Source: Candidatus Latescibacterota bacterium (GTDB lineage: Bacteria > Latescibacterota > CBDEFO01). From it: DNA of 64,000 nucleotides. This document shows positions 12,251 through 32,412 of the stretch, piece after piece. Numbering within the stretch: the first letter of the stretch is position 1; every line of letters starts with the position of its first letter. The stretch spans positions 96,001 to 160,000 of the forward strand of contig CBDEFO010000003.1 in assembly GCA_965237525.1 (NCBI GenBank). Direction: 5' to 3'. The notes beneath the pieces were generated by a model. That model ran no database searches and was not told the DNA's origin. It worked only from the letters and a program-made list of their open reading frames with translations. The position numbers were made by a program, and so were the translations under genes.

Positions 12251-14403
12251 ACCAAAACACAAAACTCAAAGTTGCATTCCCATCTATCTTTAGGACCTAT
12301 CCCTATCTTCCAATTGGGAAACACAACGGAGCTTTGATATGTCCTTTCAAAGCCTTTTTCCGATTGCGAAACTGTCTCCACAGGAAAACGCCATACGTCT
12401 GTCTTTCTATCGAATTTTAACGACACAGTCAAATTCCGATCATCGTCGTCTAAATCTATCCTATCTATTCCTTCAACAGCTCCTGTGCTCCCTAAACTGC
12501 AATCCTTTAAGTCCACTTGTAAATTTCGACTACGGATCTCGTAGTGCCTTGCTGGTCCCTCTCCTGATAGAAATGAAAAATTAAACTCCACGCCGAACCA
12601 GAGTTCTACGTCCGCATCCAGAGGGTTTTCAATAACGTAGCGCACATCCACTTGGGCGTTAGATTTAGACATCTTAAGCTTCTTGGACACCGTCAAAGGT
12701 TGTTTCTTTTGTCCGTATATCCCCCCATCTCTTCGCATTGATACCTCTTTGCCACCATTTTGATCCTTAATATCGTACAAATAAGGCTGATTCACAAAAT
12801 CTCCCAACTCCCGGTACTCGCACGCCTTGAATCCTTCAAGTGAGGTCCCTTCTCCCAGGAAATGATCCAGAAAGCACACTCTGTTGTACCAGTCATATTT
12901 GAGATAACGCTCGATTCCCTCCTCCGTCACCTTAGCCAGGTCGTGAATACTGCCAGGCCCTTCATACTGTTTGCCCTCCACTTCTACCTCATACCTGCCC
13001 TCTATGATATCCCTGTGATAGCTTTCAGGCCTCCTTGACAGAGTGTTCACCAGATTGAAATCTCTCGGCTTGTAGTCCAATTCAAAGAGTGACCCGCCGT
13101 AGGAAGGATCAAGATACAGATTCAGCAGGCCGTTGCTCAAGATAATCTCATCTTTTCCGTCCCCGTCAAAATCCAACTCCTCGGACTCAATCCAATCTCC
13201 TGAACCTTTTTCCTCTTCATCGGAGATCCTTTCGGCCCTTATAAGGTGTCTGTAAACGGTGTCCCTTAGATGAGGCAGATAGAGACCTCCGAACACGCCG
13301 TGCCAGTAAGCACAGTTACACTGTCCTTTCCATAGCTCGCTTATAGCTTCTCCCTCCCCTTTTAAATCGACTTTCCTGCTCACAGAGAGCATCTTTTTGT
13401 GCATATTGTTGCTCTCATCATACTTGGCCAGGAACCCCCTCCAGAATCCGCCCTTTAAGAACACCTTATACTTTTCTATCTCTCCTTTGTCCTTCAAATC
13501 CTCCACAATATCCTCAAGCTCCGCTCCCTTTTGAGATGGGAGAGTCCATTGGCTCATCTCAAAATAAGAGGCTGTCGGGAGGTATGCCCTGCCTGAAGCC
13601 GGGTGCTTATCGGTGAAGTCCGAAAAGGTAGTGGTATTAATCCAATCGCTGTTCTCCTCCAGAGCACAGAAGAACTTCTCCAGCCACTTCTCCTTATAGA
13701 CCCAATCGTAAGTCTTGGGCCATAGGCCGAACTTCTCTCCGTCGTCAACGATCACCGATAACCTGTCTCGATTCAGAGAGGTCGGATCGTTCTCAGTGCC
13801 CATGTCTCGTAGATAATCGATTGTAAATTCTGGTAACTTGAACGGAATTCCGTATCTCAGCCTTTCGCTTATCGGAAAGATAGAGAGCACATACCCCTGT
13901 TCTTCAGTATTGAAATATCCGTAGAGTTCCTCTTCGTTGAATCCGGCGCTTTTGAAGTGATAATCGTCGAGGGCTACATACTTTATCCCCGCCTCAGCCA
14001 GCGGCTTGGGTAGGTGAGGCTCCCATACCCTTTCAGGCAGCCACATCCCCCTTGCCTCGTACCCGAATCTATCCTTGATGTAATCTGTCAACATCTCTAT
14101 TTGACCTATCTTATCCCTGTCGGGGATAATAGGCATAATAGGCTCGTAGAATCCCCCGGTCATCATCTCGACCTGTCCTCTATCTACTAACTCTTTCAGC
14201 ATAGCGATAAACTCAGGTCTCTTTTGCTCTATCCATTCCAGAAGACAGCCGGAATAGTGCAGAACCATCTTTATAGAGGGGTGCCTTGAAAGGATCTGGA
14301 TAAAGGGCAGATACGACTTTTTGTAGGCCATTTGAAAGACAGAGTCAAAATTCCCCACTGGTTGATGGCAGTGTATCCCGAATATAAGATTTATCCTCTT
14401 CAT
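12241..14403 (-). CDS. GH57 4-alpha-glucanotransferase / alpha-amylase
   Basis: HCHQPVGN, GMWLPERVW, DDGEKFG and AYWHGVFGGLY motifs; ATG at 14403 overlaps the upstream stop. Confidence 0.92.
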   Translation of the reverse strand: MKRINLIFGIHCHQPVGNFDSVFQMAYKKSYLPFIQILSRHPSIKMVLHYSGCLLEWIEQKRPEFIAMLKELVDRGQVEMMTGGFYEPIMPIIPDRDKIGQIEMLTDYIKDRFGYEARGMWLPERVWEPHLPKPLAEAGIKYVALDDYHFKSAGFNEEELYGYFNTEEQGYVLSIFPISERLRYGIPFKLPEFTIDYLRDMGTENDPTSLNRDRLSVIVDDGEKFGLWPKTYDWVYKEKWLEKFFCALEENSDWINTTTFSDFTDKHPASGRAYLPTASYFEMSQWTLPSQKGAELEDIVEDLKDKGEIEKYKVFLKGGFWRGFLAKYDESNNMHKKMLSVSRKVDLKGEGEAISELWKGQCNCAYWHGVFGGLYLPHLRDTVYRHLIRAERISDEEEKGSGDWIESEELDFDGDGKDEIILSNGLLNLYLDPSYGGSLFELDYKPRDFNLVNTLSRRPESYHRDIIEGRYEVEVEGKQYEGPGSIHDLAKVTEEGIERYLKYDWYNRVCFLDHFLGEGTSLEGFKACEYRELGDFVNQPYLYDIKDQNGGKEVSMRRDGGIYGQKKQPLTVSKKLKMSKSNAQVDVRYVIENPLDADVELWFGVEFNFSFLSGEGPARHYEIRSRNLQVDLKDCSLGSTGAVEGIDRIDLDDDDRNLTVSLKFDRKTDVWRFPVETVSQSEKGFERTYQSSVVFPNWKIGIGPKDRWECNFEFCVLVLD

Positions 14404-15105
14404 ACGTACCACATCCTCTCCAGAAAATCCTTCCCGGGGACCTCTACTGTCATGGCTCCGTGCAGAGGCCACACCTCCATCTGTGAACCACCCTTCACAA
14501 CGTATATCCTTACCCCAACGCTCTCTCCCTTCGACGCTCCCAGGGTGTCAAACGGCACTTTTACCTCGAACACCTTATCTACTCCTACTTCGATATCTGG
14601 GAAGTTCTTATTGTTGTTCTCAAGGGACATATCGAGTCCCAATCTATCTTTTCCCACAACCTCTATCGCGACAGAGATGCCTTCATCTCTCATCTGGTCG
14701 GGACTTATTGTCGTATCCGCTCTCAGATAGAGATTCTCTAGATCGAAGCCGTAATGCACGTTCTTTAAGATCGTTCCTCCTCGATGCGTCGAACCCCTTT
14801 CGCCACCCATGCTGTGGCATCCTGCGCTCAACCACTCATAGTACCCTGTCACCTTTCCATCTATAACGGGGCATATGAAATCCACAGGCTCCTTGAAAGG
14901 CAGTCGCTTCTCCACCTTTGTAAGAGGAACATCCAGATATCCCGGCGGTTCTTTGCCTATCAACTGGTAGAAATTCTTCAGATGACCTCTGAAGAGACTG
15001 TCGAACTGCTCATCGTGTGATGACGAATGATCTGCCCCGTACCACCAGAACCAGTCGCTTCCCTGGGCCATATAGATCTCATCTTGCGCTCTTCTTACTG
15101 CAGGA

Positions 15106-15134
15106 GATCCCACCCGATTTAATCGGGAGGGATC
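15106..15134. repeat. Family-A palindrome in frame inside the GH57 CDS
   Basis: gatcccacccgatttaatcgggagggatc; encodes DPSRLNRVGS on the minus strand. Confidence 0.8.
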
Positions 15135-15564
15135 CTCTTTTAGACTGTCCAGTTCATCACCAGCCATCTTTAGATACTCCCAGCCCCTATTCTCCTCTTC
15201 GTCGCCTATCCAGGTCCCGAAATTGGCGTCTATCCACGAACCCGGAAAGATCCTCTTCAAACGCGTCCCTTCAGGGTGCATCTTTAGAAAAGAATTAAAA
15301 GTTATAGTCTTTAATCCTTTGGTGTTACTCAACTTCTTGTACAGCGCCCTTAGAAACTCGGCTCCATTTTCCCTGTAATTCTCCCAGGCGTTCTCACCAT
15401 CCAATATTATCGAAACTATGTGCGCTCCACTGTCTGCCTCAATGCCGTCTCTTATATTCAAAAGGCGCCCCACGAAGTCCTCCGCCGCTTTTTTGGCATC
15501 CCATGTTTGATACACAAACCCTATAAGGTCGGACAATCTGTGGTCTCTGAAGAAGAGCTTTATG

Positions 15565-15606
15565 TCCCCGATTGAACCCCCCCCCGATTAAATCGGGGGG
15601 GGGGGA
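15565..15606. repeat. Nested family-A palindromes with homopolymer arms
   Basis: tccccgattgaa-C9-gattaaatc-G11-a. Confidence 0.85.
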
Positions 15607-16594
15607 TTTGTCTCCATCTCCGAAGCTGTACATCCGAAAGGGCGTTCCACTTTTTCCGCTTAGCTTGAGAGACTCCCTCAAAACTCCGTCGTCGCTTGCC
15701 ATCCAATCTATCCCCAAACCGGCGGCGATATTCCCAACTTCCTGGCTTATCGAACCTTCAGATGGCCACATTCCAGAAGGAGTTTTTCCAAGAATCCTAT
15801 TGTGAAACTCTAAAGCTTCCACAATCTGAGCCCTGGCATCCCCTGGCCTTTTTAACTTCAAGCGGGGGAGATTAGCTTGCGGAAGACCCTCCCTTGCTGA
15901 ATCAGTATCGCACAAAAGCGGCAATATGGGATGATGAAAGGGACTAGTAGATATTTCGATCCTTTCTTCATCCCACAATCTTCTGTAAATCTGGGTTATC
16001 TTGCCTATAATCTCTCTTTCCAACTCAAGGAGGACCCTCTTATTGTCCTCAGAATAGCCCCTTCCCTTCCTCAAAAGTTCCACTATCTGATCTTTCTCTT
16101 TCAGACTATTCCCGCACCACGCCAGATTGAAGCAGACCTGAAGGTCCAGAAAATCCTCCTTCTTAAACCTCTGTACTGCCCTTTCCAGATTATCCCCGTC
16201 TCTACGTCTCATCGCGTAGAGTTCATAATATCTCTTAAAGGGTTTTATCATATTTTCAAAATTTGCGTGGAAGAAATTTTCCAAGATAAAGACCTTATCA
16301 TCCAAAGAGAGTTCTTCGGCTTCCTTTTTCGTCAGCTCCCAGAATTTATCGCTGGCCTTTCCCTCAGCGTAATCCTTCAACTGGACTAAAAGCGATGGGA
16401 CCAAATTAAACGTCACCCTCACCTCCTCGCATTCATCCACGATAGCTGCCATATCGTAATAATCCTTAATACCGTGCAGATACACCCATGGCAGAATGTA
16501 CTCCCCTGAGGAAAGGTCCTTATAAAATGGCTGGTGCATGTGCCACAAAAACGCCACATAGAGCGGATGCCCCGATTTTGTCGAAGCATCCACG

Positions 16595-17827
16595 CTATTT
16601 CCCCCTCCTGACTTCCACCTTCAAAACCCTCCTGTCGGTCGCATCCACAACCCTGAACCATACGCCCTCTTGTGACATAATCTCCCCTACCTTGGGTAGC
16701 CTTCCGAAAAACGAGATGAGCATTCCGCCTATCGTCTCGTAATCCTCCTTTTCAATCTTCAAGCCAAGTTTTTCGTTCAATTCATCTATCTCCATCCTAC
16801 CTTCTACGACTACTGCATCCCTTGTGAGCTCAATTCCACTTGATCTATCGTATTCATCCTCTATTTCTCCCACGACTTCCTCTACAATATCTTCCAAGGT
16901 TACTATCCCGGAGATTCCCCCATACTCATCCACGACCGTGCCCACATGCTTCCCGTTGGCCCTGAGATCGGCCAGTACTTCCTCGGCGCTTTTCGTCTCA
17001 GGCACGATATAGACATCGTCCATGACCTCTTCAACAGGGGCATTTTCGTCCAACCCAATTAGATCGACGGCGTGAACCATGCCCACCACATTATCCACTC
17101 TGTCTCTATAGACCGGAATCCTCGAATGTCCTGTCTGGATCATCAGTTTTGCAGTATGACCAACATTTTCAGACACAGACACAGCCACAATATCTATCAG
17201 GGGGACCATAATCTCCCTAGTTCTGAGCTCCCCAAAGTGGAATATATGGTGGATCATTCTTCTTTCATCTCTGTGCAGAGCTCCGTGCCTTTCACCCTCC
17301 CTTACGAGTATCTGAATCTCATCTCTGGTGACAAAGGGGCTTTCATTTTTGACATCGCCGCCAACTATCTTGGCAATAAGATTTGAAATAGAAGTAACAA
17401 TCGCCACAATGGGGAGCATCGCAAAATACGACACCTTCAGAGGAAAGATTGTTACGAGGACCAACCTGTCGGCATACTGCCTTGCCAGGGACATCGGCAC
17501 TATCTCGCCGAAGATAAGGATCAGAGGCCACATAATCGCCGCAGAGACTATAGCCACAAGGTCCTTGCTCACCCATTCGACCGCCAGGCTCGCAGCGACT
17601 GCAGACCCTGCGACAATAGGCAAGTTCACTCCCACCATCGTAGCTGCCAAGAATTTCTGTGGCTCATCCAAAAAATCCACGGCAACCTTTGCCAGCTTGT
17701 TACCGCTTTCGGACAGATGGCGCAATTTTAGCCTGTTGCAGGAGAGCATAACCATTTCAACTCCGCTAAAAAACGCCTGTGCTCCCAGGCACATAAGGAT
17801 GATGATTATTCCTGTAAGTTCACTCAA
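16595..17827 (-). CDS. CNNM/hemolysin-family protein (DUF21-CBS-CorC)
   Basis: AFFSGVE, FGEIVP, HSRIPVY and VDEYGG...TLEDIVEEVVGEI motifs; TTG start after AAGGAG. The longer ORF start at 17932 runs through a repeat. Confidence 0.88.
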   Translation of the reverse strand: MSELTGIIIILMCLGAQAFFSGVEMVMLSCNRLKLRHLSESGNKLAKVAVDFLDEPQKFLAATMVGVNLPIVAGSAVAASLAVEWVSKDLVAIVSAAIMWPLILIFGEIVPMSLARQYADRLVLVTIFPLKVSYFAMLPIVAIVTSISNLIAKIVGGDVKNESPFVTRDEIQILVREGERHGALHRDERRMIHHIFHFGELRTREIMVPLIDIVAVSVSENVGHTAKLMIQTGHSRIPVYRDRVDNVVGMVHAVDLIGLDENAPVEEVMDDVYIVPETKSAEEVLADLRANGKHVGTVVDEYGGISGIVTLEDIVEEVVGEIEDEYDRSSGIELTRDAVVVEGRMEIDELNEKLGLKIEKEDYETIGGMLISFFGRLPKVGEIMSQEGVWFRVVDATDRRVLKVEVRRGK

Positions 17828-17883
17828 AGTATCCGGCGCTCTCCTTTTTAACAAGTAAGTGGACAGGCGTGCCCCCGCCGCTA

Positions 17884-17965
17884 AGATTGCTTGGGTCTTA
17901 GGTCCCCTCGCAATGACCCAAGTGAAAGCCAAACGATGTCATTGCGAGCAACAGCTAAGCTATTT
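17884..17965. repeat. Family-B repeat (agattgc...ctcgcaatgac / gtcattgcgag...)
   Basis: 11-bp perfect inverted repeat at 17907-17917 and 17938-17948; related copies at about 24301-24364, 27477-27558, 57094-57243 and 11021-11100. Confidence 0.75.
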
Positions 17966-18006
17966 CTTAAACAGGACATCACCATCCCTGCGTACTGTCT
18001 ACTTGT

Positions 18007-19281
18007 TCAATCTGTGTCCTCTGAAGAAAGTTCCCCCTGATCTTTTAGCTTTCTGACTTCAACCACATGTATCCTGTTTGCCTCTGCCTCTGTAACCACA
18101 AACTCCATATTATCGTGCACTAACTTATACCCTACATCAGGTATCTTTCCCAGGCGACCAATTATAAATCCTCCAATTGTCTTATGAGCCTCGTCCTGAA
18201 GATTCGTTCCAAATACCTCGTTGAAGGCGTCAAGCTCTATTTGGCCGGCTACCCTCACGGTCATCGAATCAATCCTTTCAAACAAAGTATCCGTTTCCTC
18301 TTTATCAGCTACCTTGCCGAATATTTCCTCCAAAAGGTCCTCCATAGTGACTAAACCCGACACAGAGCCGTACTCATCCACCGCCAAGGCGATGTGGATT
18401 CTATCCCGCCTGAATTCCCTCAGAATCTCTCCTGCCCGCTTTTGCTCAGGCACGAACGACACAGAGCGCAGTCTCCTGCTCATATCAAAGTCATCTTTGC
18501 CCTTAGCTCCTAAAAGATCCTTAGCGTACAGGATCCCGACCACATTGTCAAAATCACCCTTGTAGACCGGTATCCTGGAATATCTTTTCTCCCTTATCGA
18601 ACTTATAACTTCATCTATAGGGGAGTCTATATCCAGCGTGAACATCTGAGCCTTGGGACTCATCACGTCCGCGGCCCTTTTTTTTCCCAGGTCTATCACC
18701 CGTTGCATCATCTCTTTTTCCTTTAGATCGAGCACACCTTCCTGCCCTCCCGCCTCAAGAGCAACCTTCAATTCCTCCTCCGTAATTCCCGATTCAGGGG
18801 GAGGTTCCCCCATGCTTGCCAGCCAGATTATAAGGTCCACAATCGCTCTTACCAATCTCCTCACCGGAAATATGACTTTCGACACTGTGCTTATGATGGG
18901 TGCCACTATAAAAGAAATTCGCTCGGCATTATGAATTGCTATTGTCTTGGGGGCGATCTCGCCGAACACTAATATCAAAAAGCCCATAACGACGATAGAT
19001 ATTTCCAGCCCCATCTCGCCTAAAACCCGCTCAGCTATACGCTCGGCTATAGTTGCAGAATAGATATTTACAAACATGTTCACCGACAAGATAGAGATCA
19101 AGAGTCTCCGTGGGTTCTTTAAAAGTTCCACTATGAGCTTACCCTTCTTATCCTCCTCCTGTTCGAACCTTTCCAATCTCACCTGGCTCAAAGAGAAAAG
19201 CGCTGTCTCAGAACATGAGAAGAACGCTGACAAAAAAAGCAGGATTACCAACATCAATAATGGAAGCCATAGATATTCCAT
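18007..19281 (-). CDS. CNNM/hemolysin-family protein (DUF21-CBS-CorC)
   Basis: SAFFSCSETA, FGEIAPK, YSRIPVY and VDEYGSVSGLVTMED motifs. Confidence 0.9.
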   Translation of the reverse strand: MEYLWLPLLMLVILLFLSAFFSCSETALFSLSQVRLERFEQEEDKKGKLIVELLKNPRRLLISILSVNMFVNIYSATIAERIAERVLGEMGLEISIVVMGFLILVFGEIAPKTIAIHNAERISFIVAPIISTVSKVIFPVRRLVRAIVDLIIWLASMGEPPPESGITEEELKVALEAGGQEGVLDLKEKEMMQRVIDLGKKRAADVMSPKAQMFTLDIDSPIDEVISSIREKRYSRIPVYKGDFDNVVGILYAKDLLGAKGKDDFDMSRRLRSVSFVPEQKRAGEILREFRRDRIHIALAVDEYGSVSGLVTMEDLLEEIFGKVADKEETDTLFERIDSMTVRVAGQIELDAFNEVFGTNLQDEAHKTIGGFIIGRLGKIPDVGYKLVHDNMEFVVTEAEANRIHVVEVRKLKDQGELSSEDTD

Positions 19282-19381: not shown

Positions 19382-20497
19382 TTAGAAAAATACGTGAAGT
19401 TCAAAGGTTAACCGATCTTCACTTTCCCGGGGTCTCTGAGGGACACTATCGTTGATGTGGTAAAACACGCTCAACTGAAGAAACTGGGTTATGAAGGGTT
19501 CCAAGCCAATAGTTACCCTTTCGCTTTCGTCCTCATCAACTTGGGGATCGGCATCGAAAAATCGGTCCCAGAAATCGTAAGTCACCTTGAGGTTGATACC
19601 CTTTGTAATCAAAAAGTCAAGTTCCCCCAAAAAGGCAAGTTCCTTTCCAAAACGGTCGTCCCTGTCACTATCTATAAAGTCTAACTCGCTTAAAAGAGTC
19701 AATCTTCCGAAATTTGCTCCTGCAAAGTGTCCATATACCTTCCTGGTCGTTCCGGGAAACTTGTTCCTTGAAAACGATCCTCCGAACCTGAAATGTCTGA
19801 AAACAACATAACCTATCAAGGACACCTGCTTACTCCTGTTGTCATCAGATAATCCCCGTCCGGACCCGTTGCTTAGAGCTACGCTAAAAGAAAAAGGCCC
19901 GGGCTCTATGCCGCCTTCTATACCGAAGTCTTGTATATTGTAGTTAAACCCCGTCTTCTCCCTTATAAATGCAGCATTGTCCAGGAGTCTTAATCCGAAC
20001 GGGAGCAGCATCCTTCCCGCCTTGAAATAGCCCCTCAAGGGCAGATTGTATAAGATCCCGTATGCCTCCCTGTTGCTTGCCCCAGACGGACCTAAGTTCT
20101 CATCAACATACAAAGTTAGCAAATCCTTTATGAGCTCCATCTCCACATAAGCGTTCGCGGTTCTGATCTCTATGCTGTTATCGTTTTCTCTATCCACTCC
20201 GAATATCGTCTGGTTATTAACCCTCAAATCCGCGCCTAGAGATATATAATCGTTTAGCCTGTTGTCAAAAAGGGCTTCGTTAGAACGTTTGACGAATCTG
20301 TGGGGGAGACGCGTGTAGCTGTACATCAGGCCGAAATCGGTCCTTTTTCCTCCTCCCGTCGGATTCACATGGCACTGGCTGCACTTGTATCCCGTCCTCG
20401 CTGCCAGATAAGGCTCAGCGCGGCAGAACTTTGGAAGAACTACAGCTCCTGAAACTAGTATCCAGATCAGACACACAGCCTTTAACTTTTTTTTCAC
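19382..20497 (-). CDS. Outer-membrane beta-barrel (porin-like) protein with an N-terminal c-type heme motif
   Basis: Signal peptide, then EPYLAARTGYKCSQCHVNPTGGG (CxxCH); amphipathic beta-strands; C-terminal Phe (ELHVFF). Confidence 0.75.
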   Translation of the reverse strand: MKKKLKAVCLIWILVSGAVVLPKFCRAEPYLAARTGYKCSQCHVNPTGGGKRTDFGLMYSYTRLPHRFVKRSNEALFDNRLNDYISLGADLRVNNQTIFGVDRENDNSIEIRTANAYVEMELIKDLLTLYVDENLGPSGASNREAYGILYNLPLRGYFKAGRMLLPFGLRLLDNAAFIREKTGFNYNIQDFGIEGGIEPGPFSFSVALSNGSGRGLSDDNRSKQVSLIGYVVFRHFRFGGSFSRNKFPGTTRKVYGHFAGANFGRLTLLSELDFIDSDRDDRFGKELAFLGELDFLITKGINLKVTYDFWDRFFDADPQVDEDESERVTIGLEPFITQFLQLSVFYHINDSVPQRPRESEDRLTFELHVFF

Positions 20498-20524
20498 CTT
20501 CCCGCCTGTGACTCGTAGAAGAGT

Positions 20525-21628
20525 TCAATCGTTATTGGCTCCCCTTAATATCCACTCCTTTATCACATCTATTTGCTCCTGGGGCAGGGGTGGCTCACCG
20601 GAAAAGAAAGGCGGCATCTGGTCTCCCACGATTCCGTTCCTGCCTTCCAACTTCCAGATCATATAGCTGTTCTCAGGGTCGCCCGGATCTACTCTCGGGA
20701 TTCCTATCGAACTGTCGACCCCGACCAAATTATCGAAGGACTCGCCCTCCTCAAGGGTGAAAGGCCCTGTCCCTCCTGGGACGTGGCAATTTATACATAT
20801 TGCGCTAAATACATTTTCCTGAATAGCTGACAGCGTGGGCGGGAAGGGTCCGGACATCTGGACGCTGACCATGATATTGACCACCACACTCGACTCGTCG
20901 CTGTCATTGCTTATAATCTCTACCGCACCCTCAGCTGAGGTGGCTTGGAGGAGGGATGTGTTGATCAGCAGCTTAAGGAACACTGACCCACCCGGTGGCA
21001 CTGTTTCATCAGATAGCGCCAGGGGGGTGATCCAGTCGACAGTTGAGACCAGACTGCTCAACGCCAGATCGGCGCTTCCCAGGTTCTGGATAGTCACAGT
21101 AAGAGTGTCCGACTCTCCCTCCACTATCTCTGCGCTGAGATCAAGGGGGGTAACATTTATCTCCGGCAGCGGCATCTCTGTGACGGTCAGGACGATTGCG
21201 ATTGTCTCAGATGGACTCTCTGCGTCGTCGCTCAGGATCGTAAGCGTCCCCTCTGATGAGCCAAGAGGGATATCGGTTGCATCAATCCTAATGAGGATCT
21301 CCAGCGACTCGTCTTGGCCCAGAGCTTTGGAGGCCACAAGCGTCGTGGCCCACGGCACGTCCGAGCTGACACTCAAGACAGTCAGCGGAAACCCTCCCAC
21401 GTTTGTGACCGTCACCGAGACTGTGTCGACCGTTTCCTGAGTCAGCGAAAGGCTGACCTGCCCAGGCGCCACCTGGATCTGAGGCGGACCGAGGGGATTC
21501 CCCTGCGGATCCAAAGTGCTGCCGTCTCCGGCGCAGGACAGAACAGAAATAGCGAACCCCAACAAAAGACATAAAATCCAAACTACCCTATTTTCCGCCT
21601 TGATAGTCCCCGTCCTTCGTCTTCTCAT
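20525..21628 (-). CDS. Putative lipoprotein with two Ig-like repeats and a C-terminal monoheme cytochrome c domain
   Basis: Lipobox-like VLSC; two repeats of about 100 aa (PQIQVAP...VTNVG / PEINVTP...IQNLG); CINCH, PGDPENSYM and QMPP...IKEWI motifs. Confidence 0.72.
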   Translation of the reverse strand: MRRRRTGTIKAENRVVWILCLLLGFAISVLSCAGDGSTLDPQGNPLGPPQIQVAPGQVSLSLTQETVDTVSVTVTNVGGFPLTVLSVSSDVPWATTLVASKALGQDESLEILIRIDATDIPLGSSEGTLTILSDDAESPSETIAIVLTVTEMPLPEINVTPLDLSAEIVEGESDTLTVTIQNLGSADLALSSLVSTVDWITPLALSDETVPPGGSVFLKLLINTSLLQATSAEGAVEIISNDSDESSVVVNIMVSVQMSGPFPPTLSAIQENVFSAICINCHVPGGTGPFTLEEGESFDNLVGVDSSIGIPRVDPGDPENSYMIWKLEGRNGIVGDQMPPFFSGEPPLPQEQIDVIKEWILRGANND

Positions 21629-22556
21629 TATCCTCCCAGAACAGCTTGTAAAAGAATCCCTTTTTCTCTGTAAGAGACTGAACGTAGTGAACCAAAGACC
21701 ACTTCCTACTCACCTCTATAGCGGTCTTCTCCTCATCTGACATAGTGTCCCTTTCCTGCCTTGTAATCAGACTCTTTATGTAATCCTTAACCCCTTTGAT
21801 TTCATCATCAGAGTAATAACCCTCAAAGGTCACAAGGTCCTGATAGCTTTCTCTCGTAAAGAGAAAACTCCTGGCGTAGGAGGGCATGGGAGTTCCGCTC
21901 AAGCCCGTATTAAACACCCTGTAGATGTCCTTATTCGCCCGACCGCCTTTGTACTCTCCCTTTGTAAAATCATAAGCCTCTATCGGATTTCCCCAGCTGT
22001 CTTTGAGATTATCGGAAGAGGGGCCATCGCCTTTTCCCCTCTTGCCGTGACATTTCCAGCACTGCATGAGCATGTATATCTTTTCACCCTGGGCTATCGT
22101 CTCCTGGGTGACCGGCATCTCCTGTGGTATATCTATCGGCGCTTTAGGCCTTCTTTTTTCAAACTTACTTGAAAAGGTCTTGATGTACTGAATTACAAAC
22201 ATCCGCTCGTCCTCCGAGAGAATATCTCCCCAGGCGGGCATGGAAGTACCCGGAATTCCCCTGGATATAGTCCTGAATATATCCTCATCTGCAGGAAGAG
22301 ATCCCGATGGCGTAGAGCGGAACTTGTAAGCCCCCTTGGTAAAGTCTCTCGGCTTGGGATCAAGATACTTCGCAGCGGGTCCACTTCCGTTCCCGCTCTG
22401 GCTGTGACACGCTGCGCACGCCTTATTGTATATCCTCTCTCCCCTGAGGGCTGAGACGCTCCATTCCTTGCTTGATTGGCTGTCAGAGGAAAAGGCGCAG
22501 CCAGGAACGCAGAGCCACAAGACGTTGACAGTCCAGAAAATAGGAATTGACCTCAT
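21588..22556 (-). CDS. Diheme c-type cytochrome
   Basis: CAACH...KPRDFTKG...GTSMPAW and CWKCH...GTPMPSY, indicating two His/Met hemes; N-terminal signal-like segment. Confidence 0.85.
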   Translation of the reverse strand: MRSIPIFWTVNVLWLCVPGCAFSSDSQSSKEWSVSALRGERIYNKACAACHSQSGNGSGPAAKYLDPKPRDFTKGAYKFRSTPSGSLPADEDIFRTISRGIPGTSMPAWGDILSEDERMFVIQYIKTFSSKFEKRRPKAPIDIPQEMPVTQETIAQGEKIYMLMQCWKCHGKRGKGDGPSSDNLKDSWGNPIEAYDFTKGEYKGGRANKDIYRVFNTGLSGTPMPSYARSFLFTRESYQDLVTFEGYYSDDEIKGVKDYIKSLITRQERDTMSDEEKTAIEVSRKWSLVHYVQSLTEKKGFFYKLFWEDNEKTKDGDYQGGK

Positions 22557-22653
22557 TCTTAGCTCCCGTAATCATCCTTCTCAAATAAAAAGCGACAGAT
22601 GCTGTAACCCATCGCCTGAAGGTCTACTCTTTCGCCCCCTCGATAACACAAGC

Positions 22654-22682
22654 AATTTAATACATAAAATATCAAATGTCAA
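22654..22682 (-). promoter_or_regulatory. Putative sigma70 promoter for the cytochrome-porin operon
   Basis: Minus strand TTGACA-17 bp-TAAATT. Confidence 0.55.
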
Positions 22683-22763: not shown

Positions 22764-22848
22764 TCGTGATGAGTAGAACCTTGGCTATAGGCACTGCAAA
22801 TCGCAGATTAAACTATTTTATGCGATAACCCTAAAGAAGGTGATAAGA

Positions 22849-23697
22849 ATGAAAGTATCAAAAGATAAAATCAGGAGGCCTGCAGTTGCGGGTCAGTTCT
22901 ACTCTGGCGACCCTGAGGTCCTAAAAAGAGAGGTTGTGGAACTTTTAGAGCACGCCGATGACGCCGATGTCAAGGGACAAATCACTGCCCTTATGTGTCC
23001 ACACGCGGGATACCCCTACTCAGGCAGGATAGCCGCATCAGCCTACAAACAGATCCAGGGACAGGACATAGACACAGTCGTAGTCACAGCGCCAAGCCAC
23101 AGGGATGTCTTCCAGGGGGCCTCCATCTACAACGGAGGAGCCTACCAGACCCCATTGGGGACTATTCCTGTGGATGTGGAACTTGCTTGTGCCATGGCCC
23201 AGCAAGATCCTGACATATTCCGTCTCGGAGACGACGGGCACAAGGATGAACACTCCTTAGAAGTTCAACTTCCCTTTTTGCAGGAAACCCTAAAAAACTT
23301 CAGGATCGTCCCCATAGTCCTTTGCGAGCTTTCTCTTGATCTTGTAAAACGCCTCGCCGACGCTGTTGCCTCCGCTATAAAGGGCAGGAAACTCCTCATC
23401 GTCGCAAGCTCTGACCTCTATCACGGTTACTCATATAAAGAGTGCTTACGATCCGATTCTAAGACCCTCTCCAAGATCGAAGAGTTCGACCCTGAGGGCT
23501 TTTTTGAAGGAATCCAGAAAGAGGACTACCAGGCCTGTGGAGCAGGGCCTATAACCACAGCCCTTTTAACCTCCCGGAAGATAGGAGCTGACAAGGCCCA
23601 AATAATCGCAAGGACTAACTCCAATGACGTGACGGGTCAAAGGTTCGGATACGTCGTTGGCTACGGGGCCTCTGTCATCTATAAGTCCGATCTGTAA
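22849..23697 (+). CDS. amrB: AmmeMemoRadiSam system protein B (MEMO1 family)
   Basis: IRRPAVAGQFY, PHAGYPYSG, EHSLEVQLPFLQ, ASSDLYH, CGAGP and VVGY motifs. Confidence 0.9.
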   Translation: MKVSKDKIRRPAVAGQFYSGDPEVLKREVVELLEHADDADVKGQITALMCPHAGYPYSGRIAASAYKQIQGQDIDTVVVTAPSHRDVFQGASIYNGGAYQTPLGTIPVDVELACAMAQQDPDIFRLGDDGHKDEHSLEVQLPFLQETLKNFRIVPIVLCELSLDLVKRLADAVASAIKGRKLLIVASSDLYHGYSYKECLRSDSKTLSKIEEFDPEGFFEGIQKEDYQACGAGPITTALLTSRKIGADKAQIIARTNSNDVTGQRFGYVVGYGASVIYKSDL

Positions 23698-23718
23698 GCG
23701 AAAACCGGTGGAAAGAAA

Positions 23719-24264
23719 ATGGGATTTTCCGAAGATGAGAAGGAAAAACTCCTCAAAATCGCCAGAACCACTGTAGAGCAGGTCGCAAAGGGGAAAGGAA
23801 TCCCTGACTTTGAAGTCGAATCGGAGGCGCTGAAAAAGGAGTGCGGCGCCTTCGTCAGCATCCACAAGGGCAAAGACTTAAGAGGATGCGTAGGCTTCAT
23901 ACGCGCCTGTGATCCCCTGTACATCACAGTCCGAAACGCCGCCGAAGCCGCAGCGGCACGAGACCACAGATTCTCCCCCCTAAAAAAGGGAGAACTTGGC
24001 AGAATAAAACTCGAAATCTCCGTCCTCTCTCCCCTAAAGAAGATAGAAAATGTAGACGAGATCCAAGTCGGAAGAGACGGGATAGTGATAAGAAAAGGAG
24101 TAAACCAGGGGCTTCTTCTTCCTCAAGTTGCGACTGAGTTCGACTGGGATCGCACGACGTTCCTCGAACACACGTGCCTTAAAGCCAATCTCCCGAAAGA
24201 TTCCTGGAAAGACCCCGAAGCAGAAATATGGATCTTTTCAGCCGATGTATTTCAAGAGGAGTAG
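23719..24264 (+). CDS. amrA: AmmeMemoRadiSam system protein A (AMMECR1 family)
   Basis: GAFVS, LRGCVG, DHRF, EISVLS and GLLLPQVA motifs. Confidence 0.92.
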   Translation: MGFSEDEKEKLLKIARTTVEQVAKGKGIPDFEVESEALKKECGAFVSIHKGKDLRGCVGFIRACDPLYITVRNAAEAAAARDHRFSPLKKGELGRIKLEISVLSPLKKIENVDEIQVGRDGIVIRKGVNQGLLLPQVATEFDWDRTTFLEHTCLKANLPKDSWKDPEAEIWIFSADVFQEE

Positions 24265-24392: not shown

Positions 24393-25814
24393 TTAAAATT
24401 TATAGCTTCCGGAGAAGAATAACCTCCTTGTCTCCTCGTCCCGGTCGACTTCAGATCTTATCTGTCTGAAGACTGCACGCGACCACGCAAAGTCCAACTG
24501 AAGCGACTGATCTATCAGGACTCCTGCTCCTAATGTGATAAAGTCCCGGTCGTCCTTTATATCGACAGGAAGCTCTCCGAGCACGGTCAAGGTCGGACCT
24601 ACGAAAGATAGCGGGTCTCTGTAGAATCCTCCCCGCAGTTTGACCTCAACTAAAGGAAGTGAATATTCGGCTCCTATGTGGAATCTGGTGACTCCTTTGT
24701 ACTGCTTATCGAAGTCAGCTTTTCCGTCCCCATCTATGTCCTCTACAAAGGAGATCTCTTCACGGAACTCATCCTGGAAGGTAAAGATAGGGTCCTCTTT
24801 GAACTCGGTCTCATCCCAGGATGCGAAGCTCATATCGGCGCTTAGAATGAAGCTCGGAAAGGACAGCGAACCTCCAATTCCGAACTCGAAGGGGATACGG
24901 ATTTTATACTCTCCTAAAAAGGGCGTAGGGTCCCTGAAATCTATGGTTACGCTGTCTGGTTCTTCCTCGAACCAAAGGGTATCCGCAAATTCACTCCGAC
25001 CTTCCACCTTTATCTTATAGGTAACGGGGCTGGAAACGGCAGCTCCAAGGCGAAAATGTTTCCCTCCTTTAATAAGTATCCCCAGCCTGGCGTTGAATCC
25101 GCTGTATTCATCGGATCGGGATATTGCGTTAAAGAGACCGATTATGTCTGGATTGGTGTCAGGGTCATTGACGAATGATTTGGCGGAAATATCGGCTATT
25201 TGTGAAAATTCGTCGCCGCCGTCCCATATATTCAGGGCTAGTCCCAAAGAGACAGACGGCGAAATGTCCGTCGCGCCTGCTATGGAAAAGACCCCCAATC
25301 CTCCTTCATCTCTTTGCTGGACATCGTTCTCATATTCAAATATGGTGTCATCCACACCTTTATATCGGATCTTCGAATCGAAATCTTTGATCCTGTTATA
25401 GCCTATAGCGAAGACCAGGCTCCCCTGATATACGGGGACAGGATAGACAAACCCCAAAGACCCGAGGGGCGTGTTGGAGATGTCATCCGATCTTTTGGTC
25501 CCAAAGAAGGTCGTTTCCGTTTCGTGTCTGGCTTGGATGATAGCGCCATAGATTTCGGCTCTTTTTATCTGAGCCAATCCGGCGGGGTTCCAGTAGGTGG
25601 CGGAAAAGTCATCTGCGACTCCGATATAGGCTCCTCCCATCCCCATAGCCCTCGCCCCCACACCCGAGAAATTGTCTATAGACACCTCCTGTCCCGACGC
25701 ACTTCCTGAAGCTAAAAAGAATATAACCGCCAAGAGAGTTCTGATCCCGGACCCCCGATTTAATCGGCGCTTTACTCGGGGGCAGGGTTGATCAATAGAA
25801 CGATCCATCTCCAT
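24393..25814 (-). CDS. OmpP1/FadL-like outer-membrane beta-barrel
   Basis: GARAMGMGGAYIGVADDFSATYWNPAGLA hatch motif; C-terminal YKF. The start is uncertain because a repeat lies in the 5' end. Confidence 0.8.
   Translation of the reverse strand: MEMDRSIDQPCPRVKRRLNRGSGIRTLLAVIFFLASGSASGQEVSIDNFSGVGARAMGMGGAYIGVADDFSATYWNPAGLAQIKRAEIYGAIIQARHETETTFFGTKRSDDISNTPLGSLGFVYPVPVYQGSLVFAIGYNRIKDFDSKIRYKGVDDTIFEYENDVQQRDEGGLGVFSIAGATDISPSVSLGLALNIWDGGDEFSQIADISAKSFVNDPDTNPDIIGLFNAISRSDEYSGFNARLGILIKGGKHFRLGAAVSSPVTYKIKVEGRSEFADTLWFEEEPDSVTIDFRDPTPFLGEYKIRIPFEFGIGGSLSFPSFILSADMSFASWDETEFKEDPIFTFQDEFREEISFVEDIDGDGKADFDKQYKGVTRFHIGAEYSLPLVEVKLRGGFYRDPLSFVGPTLTVLGELPVDIKDDRDFITLGAGVLIDQSLQLDFAWSRAVFRQIRSEVDRDEETRRLFFSGSYKF
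25742..25794. repeat. Extended family-A element in the 5' end of the FadL-like gene
   Basis: tgatcccggacccccgatttaatcggcgctttactcgggggcagggttgatca. Confidence 0.75.
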
Positions 25815-32323: not shown

Positions 32324-32412
32324 TGGTGCCGAAGCCGGGAGTCGAACCCGGATGGACGTTAAAGCCCGCGGGATTTTGAGCCCCGTGTGTCTACCAGTTT
32401 CACCACTTCGGC
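32324..32412 (-). tRNA. tRNA-Leu (anticodon CAA)
   Basis: GCCGAAG acceptor stem, D-loop GGTA, anticodon arm cgggg-ctCAAaa-tcccg, long variable arm, GTTCGA T-loop and encoded CCA. Confidence 0.95.

Follow-up and report, generated by a model that had tools for sequence, protein, structure and literature searches.

The locus considered here raises the question of whether a porin that carries its own heme, encoded next to two further c-type cytochromes, moves electrons at the outer membrane and, if so, in which direction. The genes lie in a stretch of 64,000 nucleotides (nt) of contig CBDEFO010000003.1 from a Candidatus Latescibacterota bacterium, referred to below as the window; all coordinates are window positions. 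Genes A, B, and C are all on the minus strand and are arranged in this order of transcription, with an overlap of 41 nt between A and B and a gap of 27 nt between B and C (Table 1). The initial annotation of this DNA had described three co-oriented, close-set genes with four CxxCH motifs, and the open reading frames (ORFs) are indeed found at that place. These motifs are not a matter of chance, since CxxCH arose in only 19, 0, and 6 of 20,000 shuffles of A, B, and C, respectively. A same-genus comparison locus, L001, also labelled Candidatus Latescibacterota, encodes a barrel 94% identical to gene C, and the approximate dN/dS values against this locus are 0.37 (A), 0.33 (B), and 0.18 (C). What is new is a separate barrel family, represented by gene C, and its dedicated lipoprotein cytochrome, represented by gene B.

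For gene C, prediction points to a porin of the outer membrane whose periplasmic mouth is plugged by a single c-type heme. Its AlphaFold model, based on 119 sequences, has a predicted local distance difference test (pLDDT) score of 86.6 and shows 16 barrel strands (residues 85–370) preceded by a short plug. Foldseek matched the model to general porins and OprP/OprO, and a wide structural search returned OprP (2o4v) first (Z 25.9, root-mean-square deviation [RMSD] 3.0, 292 residues aligned), with MtrB only at rank 44 (Z 11.6, RMSD 9.9). The earlier description of the 371-residue protein as a barrel with an N-terminal heme motif and a terminal Phe thus agrees with the predicted OprP-like fold. 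The protein starts with a signal peptide whose cleavage site, inferred from a conserved AEP (cut between A and E), makes the heme Cys mature residue 12. Conservation of CxxCH in homologues had been set beforehand as a test, and the motif is present in all of the 120 best homologues; more widely, it occurs within the first 90 residues of 248 of the 266 family proteins examined, the other 18 being 240 to 353 residues long and mostly apparently cut at the N terminus.

Neither Pfam nor NCBIfam (E ≤ 1 for NCBIfam) holds a family for gene C; Porin_4 is touched by 21 of 119 family members. There are 1,197 homologues; at 50% identity, the family has 415 representatives at E ≤ 1e-30 and 1,182 at 1e-10. 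The family profile had no sequence match in the PDB at E ≤ 10 and none among plasmids, and matches in the ESM Atlas were hypothetical clusters only. The family was found in 16 of 151 genomes sampled from the phylum of a Gemmatimonadales locus, and in the phylum of the window the profile gave strong matches in 5 of 61 genomes and weak ones in 20 more. In sequence, the plug motif is similar to the CxxCH-bearing Temptin_C domains found in soluble proteins. Secreted proteins that combine such a domain with dockerin-like tails are encoded at L097, L100, and L102, and their sequences suggest that the Temptin_C domain binds heme c in bacteria.

The closest described design is that of Cyc2, reported by Keffer et al. 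(PMC8406198) as a 16-strand OprP/OprO-like porin with an N-terminal heme domain and defined there by AxPxFAR[QK][TY] before the heme motif and PxL just after it. With Cyc2, Cyc2PV-1, and Cyt572 as described in that paper, gene C shares the signal peptide, the single N-terminal CxxCH at mature residue 12, and the predicted 16-strand OprP/OprO-like barrel. Profile comparison indicates that gene C is a full-length remote homologue of Cyc2-motif porins: the family profile aligned with seven such porins from neighbouring loci over 319 columns (P 96%, E 4e-9), and the heme Cys residues of the two groups fall in register. When 30 loci were searched on a small local scale, the family profile also weakly reached three of their Cyc2-motif proteins (E 2e-4 to 9e-4). 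The signature motifs differ. Among the 248 family proteins with an N-terminal CxxCH, none has AxPxFAR[QK][TY] and none has PxL; in their place, the family has AEPYLAxRxG and NxxGGGxR, and NxxGxGx[RK] is found downstream of the heme motif in 236 of the 248. Gene C, with 371 residues, passes the Cyc2 length of at least 365, whereas many homologues are shorter (355–365). The family further differs from Cyc2 in a last-strand His, a near-constant lipoprotein cytochrome partner, and a branch of its own. Gene C is thus Cyc2-like by design but stands outside the published Cyc2 definition. The initial annotation had called the architecture unlike the canonical conduits; as stated, this view is not supported, because the design is that of Cyc2 (16 strands, OprP-like, Cys at mature residue 12) and the barrel is homologous to Cyc2-motif proteins.

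The separation of the two groups was also apparent in a 73-row tree, unrooted and made quickly from a sample of the available sequences (35 family, 30 Cyc2-motif, and eight other heme porins, without characterized Cyc2), in which the family and the Cyc2-motif set fell on separate sides with SH-aLRT values of 100 each. Among 400 genomes sampled from the class of Thalassomonas, where mostly up to four candidates were scored per genome and one genome went unscored, the family profile was found in 5 and the Cyc2-motif profile in 62; a single genome had both, at different loci. No description of the gene C family turned up in the literature searched, which mostly did not cover subscription journals, and the figshare alignments and supplements of PMC8406198 could include members. 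Two further heme-porin clades from the same phylum, with intermediate plug motifs, were seen at L088–L096, L142, and L143. The barrel of the L143 clade has a second CxxCH and is encoded upstream of Rieske/cytochrome b-looking genes, and the L142 heme porin is preceded by a B-like Ig-cytochrome gene.

Apart from His43 of the heme motif, His368 in the last strand is the sole conserved His of the gene C family (99% of 119 close and 91% of 116 distant sequences), and there is no conserved Met. As strand alternation puts His368 on the lumen-facing side near the periplasmic end, it may be the sixth ligand of the plug heme.

Gene order in other genomes was compared for the closest 80 of 564 loci, many of which come from one phylum. 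Genes A, B, and C occur together in 29 of these loci, B and C in 42, and C alone in nine, where one of the C-alone loci and several of the B+C loci end short upstream. Gene B lies directly upstream of C in 71 of the 80, so the barrel and the lipoprotein cytochrome form the conserved core. Three-gene loci, ordered A-B-C in 25 cases and B-C-A in four, bear the labels Latescibacterota, Calditrichaeota, Marinimicrobia/Fidelibacterota, Gemmatimonadota, KSB1, Myxococcota, and Bacteroidetes/Rhodothermales, and L141 comes from a gammaproteobacterial genome sample; the expected co-occurrence of the three genes in other genomes was thus seen in several phyla. The B–C adjacency speaks against a merely loose linkage of the genes, and a tie to the downstream CNNM/CorC metal-transport genes is equally hard to maintain. 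Two co-oriented CNNM genes do follow 100 nt downstream with no terminator match in between, but of the loci inspected individually only the same-genus one has CNNM neighbours, and they form no cluster in four or more loci. This CNNM link was rejected as local, being largely refuted by synteny, and we regard loose linkage or a metal-transport connection as very improbable.

Gene B carries a lipobox Cys32 after a hydrophobic stretch, two Ig-like repeats, and the CINCH motif, in agreement with its earlier description as an Ig-repeat lipoprotein cytochrome. The start of the mature protein, C-x-G-D-G-x-x-L-D-x-x-G-N-P, is conserved, and 59 of 71 homologues have a C-x(1-2)-G-x-G start. The AlphaFold model (pLDDT 92.6) shows two Ig domains, for which Foldseek returned ASH/SPD-2-type Ig matches, and a helical, PSCyt1-like C-terminal monoheme domain. 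In 52 aligned sequences of this domain, Cys, Cys-His, and Met are invariant, and the heme spacing among 71 homologues is CxxCH in 21, CX3CH in 9, CX4CH in 34, and other or none in 7. The heme-domain profile weakly matches the C-terminal heme domain of hydrazine synthase alpha (5c2v, E 4e-6) and FoxE (5mab, E 8e-6), a likeness at the domain level. The hemes of FoxE are His/Met-ligated (PMC10654088); FoxE is a diheme protein from a foxEYZ operon, whereas B has a single heme and a lipid anchor, and none of its neighbours was recognized as foxY/foxZ-like. In Thalassomonas sp. RHCl1 (L075:5456–6889), the B-type lipoprotein encoded upstream of the barrel is itself fused to two cytochrome P460 domains. 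At L141:1944–6056, a complete A-B-C set is preceded by two genes in which B-type heme domains are repeated in tandem (4 and 2 CxxCH).

The Ig stalk bears on where B acts. Homologues have 0, 1, 2, or 4 Ig copies (4 in P0272), so the stalk is accessory; as a defining part of the system it was rejected, being a lineage-specific insert absent from most homologues. The low-heme redox module at the outer membrane proposed earlier is supported by the barrel fold, the invariant heme motif, and the co-occurrence of the genes in other genomes; the stalk is not its hallmark. One could nevertheless imagine B exposed on the cell surface, with the Ig stalk carrying the heme to particles or matrix and electrons returning via the pore, which would make a true transmembrane conduit. 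The two repeats of this lipoprotein and the four in P0272 would suit such a role, as would the Ig-bearing B-like gene that precedes a more distant barrel (L096/L142). However, most B proteins have only a short linker and about 125 to 140 mature residues, and one periplasmic-side heme in a 16-strand pore cannot span the membrane, as has been argued for Cyc2 (PMC8406198). We therefore consider surface exposure quite improbable, and the electron path "across" the outer membrane that the initial annotation had proposed is not borne out, as no heme chain spans the membrane.

Gene A encodes two class I domains, whose distal Met residues are both conserved in 28 aligned sequences. A conserved distal Met, as in A and B, usually marks a high-potential carrier. 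The A family comprises at least 7,519 proteins, with fusions to FixO/CcoO or EB_dh domains in some of its members. Its best solved match is PDB 6h5l_B (E 8e-66, across both heme domains) from an entry that we take to be the Kuenenia Kustc0458/Kustc0457 complex and whose chain A is HAO-like; no c4-type PDB entry was found at E ≤ 0.001. With the ExtI-type selenite/tellurite porin operon in view, a search of NCBIfam brought gene A to ExtS only at E 0.15. Although both class I heme domains can be aligned with 6H5L chain B, a Kustc0457-type diheme, the partner there is an octaheme HAO, whereas gene A adjoins a heme porin and is extended at the C terminus by a further conserved segment. In Kuenenia, the Kustc0457 gene has been reported as linked to a type-1 cupredoxin gene (PMC12053348).

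This relationship lends itself to the opposite direction of flow, in which A and B would feed the plug heme and the latter would reduce a pore solute, be it a nitrogen oxide, an oxyanion, or a metal; the reduction would serve respiration, detoxification, or uptake. The HAO complex of Kuenenia, with Kustc0457 as the diheme partner of Kustc0458, reduces nitrite to NO (PMC8042395), and the host genome has an HAO-like octaheme cytochrome on contig C6 (L151:767–2011), a relative of 4qo5 and of HAO structures. Among individual loci, L010 has a NarK transporter and Rrf2 regulators as neighbours and L023 an ArrA-like reductase. With His43 and His368 as the only conserved His and no conserved Met, the sixth site of the plug heme may stay open or labile. 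On the other hand, the A family is very large and consists of general carriers, no HAO-like family is among the neighbour clusters found in at least four of the 80 loci, and the common neighbours are oxidases, cupredoxins, and Cyc2. Taken together, outward flow appears unlikely to us.

The neighbourhoods of the three-gene loci are respiratory in character. Counting recurring gene clusters only, other redox clusters lie within 7 kb in 25 of the 29 A+B+C loci, 5 of the 42 B+C loci, and 1 of the 9 loci with C alone. Neighbours of the three-gene loci include a protein with a type-1-copper motif (Cys-His-Met) in 20, rusticyanin-like cupredoxins in 9, canonical Cyc2 in 7, a bd-like oxidase in 7, and Cox subunit I in 4; Cox subunits more generally and EB_dh-domain proteins also belong to the redox clusters counted. 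In nine loci (L006, L014, L016, L029, L032, L036, L039, L043, and L049), a cupredoxin protein with a lipoprotein-like N terminus and two to four tandem rusticyanin-like domains is encoded directly upstream of A. At L148, a canonical Cyc2 is followed by two A homologues, a member of the same cupredoxin-type family, and a ccoN-like gene, so canonical Cyc2 and gene C barrels share partner families.

These arrangements resemble the rus operon of Acidithiobacillus (cyc2-cyc1-cup-coxBACD-rus; PMC10654088) in that porin, diheme, cupredoxins, and aa3 oxidase are clustered at L003, L004, L010, and L041. They differ in a diheme closest to 6H5L chain B and in the added lipoprotein cytochrome, and in the present genome the oxidase is on another contig and RuBisCO gave no match. 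The clustering of a barrel gene with a lipoprotein cytochrome and a periplasmic cytochrome is also reminiscent of MtrCAB, MtoAB, and Pcc. Here, however, 16 strands are predicted rather than 26, there are four hemes in all, and no multiheme wire is available: the partners carry one and two heme motifs, and none is a multiheme cytochrome that could thread the barrel.

The respiratory context also bears on a gated or sensing channel, in which the heme plug would be a redox- or ligand-controlled gate with its redox state set by B and with minor net flux. Barrel-only and B+C loci amid housekeeping genes would fit such a device, as would the two-component genes in 33 of 80 loci (identified from their sequences) and the presence of the plug motif in soluble Temptin_C-domain proteins, which makes it a portable module. 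Electron transfer better accounts for the dedicated heme partner present at 71 of the 80 loci and for the respiratory context of the three-gene loci. The two-component genes may simply regulate these operons, and C is without a signalling domain. We hold gating to be distinctly unlikely, and redox sensing, which had been raised as an alternative from the outset, is a minority reading.

Cyc2-like electron uptake is the most likely reading, and we give it an even chance. A small dissolved reductant would enter the pore and be oxidized by the plug heme of gene C, the electron would pass to lipoprotein cytochrome B and on to diheme A, and A would deliver it to a cupredoxin or to the heme-copper oxidase encoded elsewhere in the genome. 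The system would work like the chain from Cyc2 through a periplasmic carrier to the oxidase in iron oxidizers and would provide supplementary energy to a host without RuBisCO. This path presumes where the proteins are localized, that C contacts B, and in which order and direction electrons flow. This reading is supported by the OprP-like fold, which is the template family reported for Cyc2 (PMC8406198), by the homology to Cyc2-motif porins, and by the conserved partners with a distal Met, the redox neighbours, and the oxidase and maturation genes of the host.

The host genome is 96.6% complete and has cytochrome c maturation genes. An aa3-type oxidase cluster on contig C4, in which subunit II is without CxxCH, adds two cupredoxin-type genes, a diheme, and a cytochrome b/multiheme unit. 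The multiheme cytochrome beside cytochrome b and this aa3 cluster (G000:C4:225940–228611, L152) appears as several overlapping ORF pieces; a related 8-heme cytochrome at L057 is a single 964-residue ORF. No match to RuBisCO was found, the only marker of carbon fixation that was looked for, and none to the Cyc2-motif profile built here. A single study of sponge metatranscriptomes provided two libraries with contigs that match parts of B at 99% identity or more, and one library also matched the start of A; no contig covered the barrel gene, and such contigs cannot show strand or level. These matches point to a sponge habitat and do not prove transcription. Pieces 90 to 99% identical were also found in a sediment run, X16.

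Several observations weigh against electron uptake as just described. The counts of loci are not phylogenetically independent, since many of the closest 80 come from one phylum. Neither this window nor L001 has redox neighbours, which puts the genus itself among the four exceptions; 42 of the 80 loci are without A and mostly without redox context, and the barrel stands alone in eight loci with enough upstream sequence. The conserved polar residues of the strands and the long loop mix Arg/Lys with Asp/Glu and show no clear cation path, and several of the top structural matches are anion-selective porins. As the Cyc2 motifs are absent, the substrate specificity of Cyc2 need not carry over, and the function of Cluster 3 Cyc2 is itself given as uncertain in PMC8406198. 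The closest solved relative of gene A partners an HAO-like protein. Finally, a sponge does not strike us as an obvious Fe(II) habitat. As a donor, Fe(II) is a candidate, and overall a rather doubtful one.

A wider proposal, tentative as a whole, is that the family is a fourth fused cytochrome-porin lineage, invisible to motif screens and present in at least eight phylum-level groups. It would be a two-part outer-membrane oxidase, made of the heme porin and a FoxE-like lipoprotein cytochrome, through which heterotrophs, among them one sponge-associated member of the Latescibacterota, would obtain electrons for respiration from Fe(II) or a different inorganic reductant. The system would be of the Cyc2 type, its electron acceptor would be genetically fixed, and the barrel might donate the sixth heme ligand (His368). 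Cyc2 serves as a marker of microbial iron oxidation, and published screens require the N-terminal motif; the Cyc2 homologues reported from heterotrophic Gemmatimonadota, KSB1, and Calditrichota were chosen by canonical N-terminal features (PMC9769843). If the family oxidizes Fe(II) or another inorganic donor, surveys miss a route of mixed organic and inorganic energy in Gemmatimonadota, KSB1, Marinimicrobia, Latescibacterota, and others. If not, it shows other uses of heme-plugged porins, which would limit Cyc2-like genes as evidence of iron oxidation. The fixed small partner also renders the electron step from porin heme to periplasm easy to reconstitute.

Table 1. Features of the A-B-C locus, in window positions
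Feature	Position	Strand	Residues	Remarks
Gene A, exported diheme class I cytochrome c	21588–22556	-	322 aa	Pfam Cytochrom_C x2
Gene A heme motif 1, CAACH	22404–22418	-	47–51	Paired with Met106, predicted His/Met
Gene A heme motif 2, CWKCH	22047–22061	-	166–170	Paired with Met224, predicted His/Met
Gene B, lipoprotein Ig-repeat monoheme cytochrome	20525–21628	-	367 aa	Lipobox Cys32
Gene B heme motif, CINCH	20783–20797	-	278–282	Invariant Met338
Gene B ASH/choice-of-anchor-D Ig repeats, two		-	about 51–150 and 157–257	Pfam/NCBIfam, Foldseek
Gene C, fused cytochrome-porin	19382–20497	-	371 aa	Signal peptide, heme plug, predicted 16-strand barrel
Gene C heme motif, CSQCH	20369–20383	-	39–43	N-terminal plug
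Gene C His368	19394–19396	-	368	Conserved, last strand; protein ends VFF (terminal Phe)
Sigma-70-type promoter match, TTGACA-17-TAAATT	22654–22682	-		Some 100 nt before gene A; inferred function
Terminator-like hairpin and U-run in leader	22590–22617	-		Probably not significant

The consensus promoter noted earlier upstream of gene A is real as a sequence match (10 of 12 consensus bases), and both hexamers are identical in L001. Promoter-type sites are not above chance (9 found vs. 5.4 ± 2.8 expected), so as an element the promoter is plausible only. A riboswitch or attenuator in the leader was rejected, given no match to an Rfam family and a folding z-score of 0.05; one stem pair of the hairpin, read by eye, is apparently broken in L001. 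The locus is flanked by the two tandem CNNM/CorC genes (16595–19281, minus strand), a divergent Memo-AMMECR1 pair (22840–24264, plus strand), a FadL-type outer-membrane protein (24393–25814, minus strand), and a tRNA (32327–32412, minus strand). Farther downstream, a gene at 14400–16593 (minus strand), presumably a GH57 glycoside hydrolase, is split into two ORFs in the window and is a single 734-residue ORF in L001; the indels cluster near 15575–15600 and reflect either a real frameshift or an assembly error.

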